A stretch of 586 nucleotides of DNA from Escherichia coli (GTDB lineage Bacteria; Pseudomonadota; Gammaproteobacteria; Enterobacterales; Enterobacteriaceae), in NCBI RefSeq assembly GCF_003334255.1, contig NZ_QOWU01000220.1. The stretch is one strand, 5' to 3'. How positions within the stretch are numbered: the stretch's first letter is position 1; each line of letters begins with the position of its first letter. The notes beneath the pieces were generated by a model that saw only the letters and a program-made list of their open reading frames with translations, was not told the DNA's origin and made no database searches. Shown here piece after piece: positions 1-586 of this stretch. Both the position numbers and the translations under genes were made by a program.

Positions 1-6
1 TCTTCG

Positions 7-46
7 TCAAAAACAACGGGGCGACCATCAAACAGCGTCGCCCCGT
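7..46 (-). terminator. Rho-independent (intrinsic) terminator for the minus-strand gene: perfect 10-bp GC-rich stem, 11-nt loop, followed by a U-tract
   Basis: Plus-strand 16-25 ACGGGGCGAC is the exact reverse complement of 37-46 GTCGCCCCGT (8 of 10 stem pairs are G:C), separated by 11 nt (26-36). On the minus strand the stem is immediately followed by TGTTTTTGA (plus coordinates 15..7). It lies about 51 nt downstream of the CDS stop at 98-100. On the plus strand the hairpin is followed by gttcatgctg, which is not U-rich, so it looks unidirectional. Confidence 0.55.
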
Positions 47-97
47 GTTCATGCTGCTCGAGTGCATCCAGCACTGCAGCACGGATATCAGTGTGTT

Positions 98-553
98 TCA
101 TCGTTTTATCGCAATCCTCAGTTGTTGTTTCAGCGCGGATGCCAGTTCTCCGGGCAGGCGTTCACGCCGGATACGGTCAACATTCTCATCAAACGCCTGT
201 TTCAGTGGGGCCGCCATCGGGATTTTCACCACATCAATAGGGTAACGGTTTTTCCCGGCCACACGCTGCATGACATGCCAGCGACCGTTTTTTAATCGCT
301 GAATGAATGCCCGCTGATACCGATGCTGACCGGCTTTAAGTATGCTGTTCGGACGACGGCCCAGCATCCTGATCCCCAGCTTAATCACTGGAAGATCACC
401 GCGGTTAACGATAATTTTTGCGTTCGGATTTCTGACCGTCGCCCTTTTCAGTCTGGACCGTTCCTTAACCAGTTTCCGGCGTACCTTTGTCTCCCGGGCA
501 ACCTGTGATGAAGACTGATTAATCGCCGTTGTGGCCACGCGGTTAATCGTCAT
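98..553 (-). CDS. Hypothetical highly basic (Arg/Lys-rich) protein, probable nucleic-acid-binding; 151 aa from ATG at 553 to TGA at 98-100; true start may lie upstream of the window
   Basis: Longest ORF in the window, covering about 78% of it. My codon-by-codon reverse-complement translation reproduces the supplied 151-aa protein. It has 24 Arg and 13 Lys versus 9 Asp/Glu, no Cys, and non-repetitive, protein-like composition. A strong hairpin plus U-tract lies about 50 nt downstream of the stop on the same strand. No family assigned; recognition is from memory only and no search was possible. No obvious Shine-Dalgarno sequence precedes the ATG at 551-553 (upstream minus-strand sequence ccggcggcttcagcaATG) and the frame is open through 554-586. 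Confidence 0.6.
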   Translation of the reverse strand: MTINRVATTAINQSSSQVARETKVRRKLVKERSRLKRATVRNPNAKIIVNRGDLPVIKLGIRMLGRRPNSILKAGQHRYQRAFIQRLKNGRWHVMQRVAGKNRYPIDVVKIPMAAPLKQAFDENVDRIRRERLPGELASALKQQLRIAIKR

Positions 554-586
554 TGCTGAAGCCGCCGGAATGGCGTTTTTACGAAC

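Follow-up and report, generated by a model that had tools for sequence, protein, structure and literature searches.

A strongly basic Escherichia coli open reading frame is the truncated 3′ part of a lambda gpZ-type tail completion gene of a lambdoid prophage

What protein lies behind a 151-codon open reading frame that is extremely rich in arginine and lysine, lacks cysteine, and fills most of a 586-base stretch of Escherichia coli DNA (the window, by which we mean the whole stretch that was analysed)? A sequence-only reading of the window took the product for an orphan, a candidate uncharacterised nucleic-acid-binding protein that could be assigned to no named family. The list of open reading frames in the window does contain 151 codons from ATG to TGA at 98..553 on the minus strand, but these do not make up a whole protein, the frame upstream of position 553 running without a stop up to the window end at 586 (VRKNAIPAASA-MTINR...). 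The window is 100% identical to a segment of the E. coli ATCC 25922 chromosome and to many other strains, and the coding sequence annotated there by RefSeq (WP_000974996.1; 534 nt, 177 aa; 8098-8631 of the ATCC 25922 locus, referred to as L001) has its start ATG 45 nt past the window end, with AGGGGGAAATT directly before the ATG and an AGGGGG Shine-Dalgarno sequence. Since the annotated start falls outside the window, the ATG first noted is an internal methionine, Met27, and the gene appears in the window as follows.

98..586, minus strand: 3′ part of the lambda gpZ-type tail completion protein gene (codons 16-177 plus the stop TGA at 100..98)
98..553, minus strand: 151-aa open reading frame as first noted, beginning at internal Met27 of the real protein

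A genuine start at Met27 was considered and rejected on three grounds: no Shine-Dalgarno sequence stands in front of it, the 26 residues that precede it fall within the Pfam model and show conservation with lambda, and the same residues belong to a confidently predicted N-terminal helix. The position aligned with Met27 in lambda gpZ by BLASTP is also a methionine, and the 151-aa fragment taken alone matches Pfam family PF06763 only from model position 26 (model length 190; E = 4.7e-47). A short window may thus truncate a gene so that an internal methionine resembles a start and a well-known protein resembles an orphan.

Searched at its full length, the 177-aa protein matched the Pfam model PF06763 (Minor_tail_Z) over positions 1-190 of 190 with E = 3.3e-57, which removes the claimed novelty, and fell into phrog_27, 'tail completion or Neck1 protein', among the PHROGs (E = 3.8e-55). 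BLASTP aligned it end to end with lambda gpZ, with 129 of 192 positions identical (67%; E = 2e-81). Nor is the protein rare: 556 homologues were recovered from a database of 5.8 billion proteins, and all 120 of the matches listed carry PF06763; an exhaustive HMMER scan yielded 254 clusters of gpZ homologues at 50% identity; 164 phage records contain a homologue; and related DNA, annotated 'phage tail protein' or 'phage minor tail U family protein', occurs in 3713 of 5426 complete E. coli genomes. Proteins of 177 aa are common too, two clusters of the protein database (P0002 and P0006) each holding >1000 member sequences. An NCBIfam scan of the fragment and of the full protein returned no family at E <= 1, a result that is no evidence for orphan status because the gpZ family has no NCBIfam model. 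Profile match, similarity to the prototype, synteny and composition all agree with membership of the gpZ family, and the PHROG match together with a fold match between the predicted structure and a solved tail completion protein (TCP) points to the wider TCP/Neck1 group. We regard it as virtually certain that the protein is the gpZ orthologue. Neither 'orphan' nor 'uncharacterised' can therefore be upheld: the protein is already known, already annotated in RefSeq and covered by both Pfam and the PHROGs, and as a routine prophage copy of a classical lambda tail gene it has small discovery value.

The E. coli genomes contain 6669 matching places, 28 of them on plasmids, with up to seven copies per genome, a distribution consistent with several lambdoid prophages per genome and occasional phage-plasmids. 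In a few database entries (P0089, P0033, P0084 and P0082) the Minor_tail_Z domain is joined to unrelated domains, namely the terminase small subunit PF07471, Big_2 PF02368, HTH/GntR-type domains and capsid PF03864; each of these entries comprises one or two member sequences and most likely reflects a wrong or chimeric gene call, not a genuine fusion. One further entry, P0249 (916 aa, six matched stretches), was set aside as an unrelated repetitive protein with a C-terminal part that is lysozyme-like by eye, its match being a repeat artefact.

The window also holds the beginning of a second gene on the same strand.

1..101, minus strand: 5′ part of the tail terminator gene (lambda gpU homologue; RefSeq 'phage minor tail U family protein')
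16..46 (arms 16-25 and 37-46), minus strand: GC-rich hairpin within the 5′ part of U (stem 10 bp, loop 11 nt), from the inverted-repeat search

The coding sequence of U spans 7706-8101 of L001, and its translation within the window is MKHTDIRAAVLDALEQHEHGATLFDGRPVVFDE. Its start ATG (101..99) overlaps the Z stop in an ATGA junction (window 98-101). Lambda and phi80 are annotated with an identical 4-nt overlap, and VT1-Sakai has a 12-nt gap at this place; the overlap suggests that translation of the tail completion gene is coupled to that of the tail terminator gene. In ATCC 25922 the two genes sit within a complete lambdoid morphogenesis module reaching from Nu1 to J, which encodes, in this order, the small and large terminase subunits, a W-like protein, portal, protease, decoration protein, major capsid protein, FI, FII, the Z gene, U, V, G, T, the tape measure, M, L, K, I and J. 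The order FI-FII-Z-U-V-G-T-H, in which FII was confirmed by NCBIfam model NF049848, is annotated identically in lambda, phi80 and VT1-Sakai, so that the Z gene is flanked by FII, for head-tail joining, and U, for the tail terminator, and stands upstream of the major tail gene V. The gene is thus part of the late structural operon of a lambdoid E. coli prophage, and the phage origin that the sequence-only reading had entertained is borne out by these flanks.

The same observations bear on whether the frame might be spurious, or what is left of a pseudogene in a prophage undergoing decay. It is common for prophage genes to be cryptic, and many database entries of this family are partial, but nothing specific to this locus speaks for decay, whereas the gene is full-length with a Shine-Dalgarno sequence, the Nu1-to-J structural module around it is complete, conservation extends over the full length down to ~25% identity, and the fold is predicted with confidence. 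As far as sequence data go, the homologues and their full-length conservation refute the possibility of a spurious frame, and we consider either form of this explanation vanishingly improbable.

On the coding strand of U the hairpin consists of a perfect 10-bp stem followed by UUGUUUUU (-25.5 kcal/mol; z = -3.65 against shuffles). Lambda U carries the same hairpin, followed by CUGUUUUU, at ~2131-2165 of the lambda locus L002 (-23.3 kcal/mol; z = -2.98); in phi80 and VT1-Sakai it is degraded (-16.1 kcal/mol, z = -0.25, and -14.3 kcal/mol, z = -1.2, respectively). To judge by its sequence, the stem with UUGUUUUU looks like an intrinsic terminator, which may be read through by Q-modified (antiterminated) polymerase. 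Alternatively, since the arms encode the G-A-T and G-R-P of the conserved U motif GATxFDGRP, the pairing may be a by-product of these codons. With its 11-nt loop, the hairpin exceeded the loop length allowed in the terminator scan and so escaped it. The sole match of that scan, at 563-575 on the plus strand, lies within chance expectation, and a further inverted repeat (I2, 155-162 / 192-199, 8 bp) was likewise taken as chance.

The compositional observation from which the sequence-only reading had started is real. Our count reproduced 37 basic residues (24 R, 13 K) against nine acidic ones (4 D, 5 E) and no cysteine in the 151-aa frame, giving a net charge of +28 and a calculated pI of ~12. 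The full-length 177-aa protein has a net charge of +30 and lambda gpZ one of +37; among 81 close relatives, nearly all cysteine-free, the median is +32, and among 75 distant cluster representatives it is +29 (range +11 to +41). Strong basicity is thus a conserved property of the gpZ family, and the adjoining tail terminator gpU has a net charge of -19.

Such a composition (net +28 to +30, pI ~12) could by itself suggest a soluble regulator or chaperone that binds DNA or RNA as a free protein, such as an arginine-rich-motif antiterminator, a FinO/ProQ-like protein or a nucleoid-associated protein, all of which had been proposed. Profile searches, however, matched no such family, Pfam returning PF06763 only and NCBIfam nothing; the gene lies within a late structural operon, between head-tail joining and terminator genes and overlapping the start of U; and mass spectrometry places the lambda orthologue in the virion (PMC10721106). 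A regulator of this kind is therefore highly improbable. The nucleic-acid-binding reading nevertheless keeps a sound part, contact with DNA being likely: the extreme positive charge of the family probably reflects DNA contact inside the tail, and we take the basicity to be, by analogy, a conserved functional property of a virion-internal structural protein rather than the mark of a regulator.

The protein was next considered as a predicted structure. An AlphaFold2 model built from an alignment of 82 sequences, reaching down to about 23% identity, had a mean pLDDT of 93.3 and a pTM of 0.84, and shows a long N-terminal helix (residues 6-48), a beta domain (59-134) and a long C-terminal helix (140-176). 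The beta domain, of ~75 residues, holds +17 of the net charge of +30. The alignment with lambda gpZ has 15 gap positions, all of them within a single block of this domain at residues ~87-105 (window ~239-295), where model confidence drops to a pLDDT of ~79; within residues 87-120 lambda gpZ has an Arg/Lys run, RRRRRKKGQRSS, where the 177-aa protein has gaps. This block represents a basic loop of variable length; in E. coli prophages the 177-aa class and the class of about 192 aa are both abundant.

In the PDB, neither a phmmer sequence search nor a Foldseek search with the model gave a significant match, and hmmsearch with the 82-sequence profile returned only a chance match to yeast BFR2 (E = 1.5); Foldseek against BFVD gave five viral matches with E <= 0.001. 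The predicted fold best matches the TCP of Staphylococcus phage 80alpha, which is located in the tail lumen. Our model thus agrees with PMC11661146, in which AlphaFold models of lambda gpZ were found to resemble the 80alpha TCP with an extra beta domain at the apex.

The literature on gpZ gives this likeness its significance. As the prototype tail completion protein (PMC11784142), gpZ joins the tail once the terminator gpU is in place and before the head is attached (PMC11099176, PMC11661146), and it was found in lambda virions by mass spectrometry, as mentioned above. Lambda particles lacking Z look normal and are ~500-fold less infectious, a defect ascribed to DNA that is wrongly placed where head and tail meet, according to the accounts in PMC11099176 and PMC11661146 (the latter citing Thomas, Sternberg, Weisberg 1978). 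In 80alpha/SaPI1, a TCP monomer inside the neck caps the last DNA base pair and holds the terminal phosphates; together with three tape measure N-termini it makes up a five-stranded sheet and a helical bundle, serving as connector and plug (PMC11661146). A neck-lumen location with contacts to both DNA end and tape measure has been seen only for this protein, 80alpha gp51 (PMC11661146). The lambda structures of 2023 and November 2025 did not resolve gpZ (PMC10721106, PMC12617516), and our search of the literature after the latter found nothing further on its location. Of the lambda tail and neck components named in the cited literature, gpZ alone has a place in the virion that has gone unseen, and the fold match to a TCP that sits inside the tail and caps the DNA end yields a concrete, testable expectation of its position.

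Altogether, the open reading frame very probably represents the C-terminal 151 residues of a 177-aa gpZ-type TCP (Neck1) of a lambdoid prophage, with a role at the DNA end in the neck and tail lumen. As to mechanism, we lean, by analogy with 80alpha/SaPI1 and with only slightly better than even confidence, towards contact with both the tape measure and the DNA end or lumen. One or a few copies of gpZ would lie inside the neck or tail lumen, as the fold match suggests, and their helices would associate with the tape measure protein. The apical beta domain, bearing most of the positive charge, would face and hold the packaged DNA end, and it may in addition hold on to the acidic lumen wall that gpU and its neighbours provide. 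In this way the end of the DNA would be placed in the tail and plugged, ready to be ejected.

Alternatively, the gpZ homologue might act outside the neck lumen, for instance as a monomer on the exterior of the tail tip, like T5 p143, or as a transient assembly factor. In keeping with this, no high-resolution map of lambda shows gpZ in the neck (PMC10721106, PMC12617516), the nominal TCP p143 of T5 was placed at the side of the tail tip (PMC11784142), and PMC10721106 speculates that gpZ occurs without symmetry in the tail. The absence from the maps, however, is accounted for if a monomer inside a C6 or C12 map was averaged out; the predicted fold of T5 p143 stands apart, the other TCPs sharing one fold (PMC11784142); the gpZ-type model best matches the TCP located in the lumen; and the phenotype of lambda lacking Z, as cited in PMC11099176, concerns the DNA end at the head-tail junction. 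On this evidence we consider an action outside the lumen distinctly unlikely.

Within the lumen-located role, a narrower proposal concerns the way in which DNA is packaged. Phage 80alpha packages DNA by the headful mechanism and has blunt ends; lambda DNA has 12-nt cohesive ends. The apical beta domain might accordingly be a dedicated clamp for the single-stranded cos end and the acidic gpU/gpFII lumen, an idea that we put forward tentatively and think rather unlikely. Under such a clamp, the Arg-rich loop of variable length, which lacks 15 residues of the lambda form, would adjust the grip, and the domain, if the proposal is true, would be an adaptation of cos-packaging phages that is absent from headful phages.

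The closest known system is lambda gpZ itself (UniProt P03731, per PMC11099176), which shares with the protein studied here PF06763, the position between FII and U, the stop/start overlap, the basicity and the absence of cysteine; the only substantial difference is the shortening from 192 aa and +37 in lambda to 177 aa and +30 here. Phage T5 p143 was called TCP/Neck1 from its gene position, but its predicted fold is unlike that of other TCPs and its membership of the group was questioned by the authors themselves (PMC11784142). SPP1 gp16.1, a TCP of a Bacillus phage, serves both head-tail joining and the delivery of DNA, is required for infectivity and, in line with gpZ, lies in the same gene neighbourhood, yet shows no detectable pairwise sequence homology to it (PMC11099176); it has 141 aa and is devoid of the beta domain. 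The 80alpha TCP gp51 (PDB 9MU2 chain P; HK97 gp10 family), the best match in fold, shares only 12% identity with the protein and belongs to another Pfam family, PF04883, to which only one of 82 gpZ relatives gave even a weak match (E = 0.03). What sets the gpZ type apart from 80alpha gp51 is the apical beta domain of ~75 residues, which the latter lacks.
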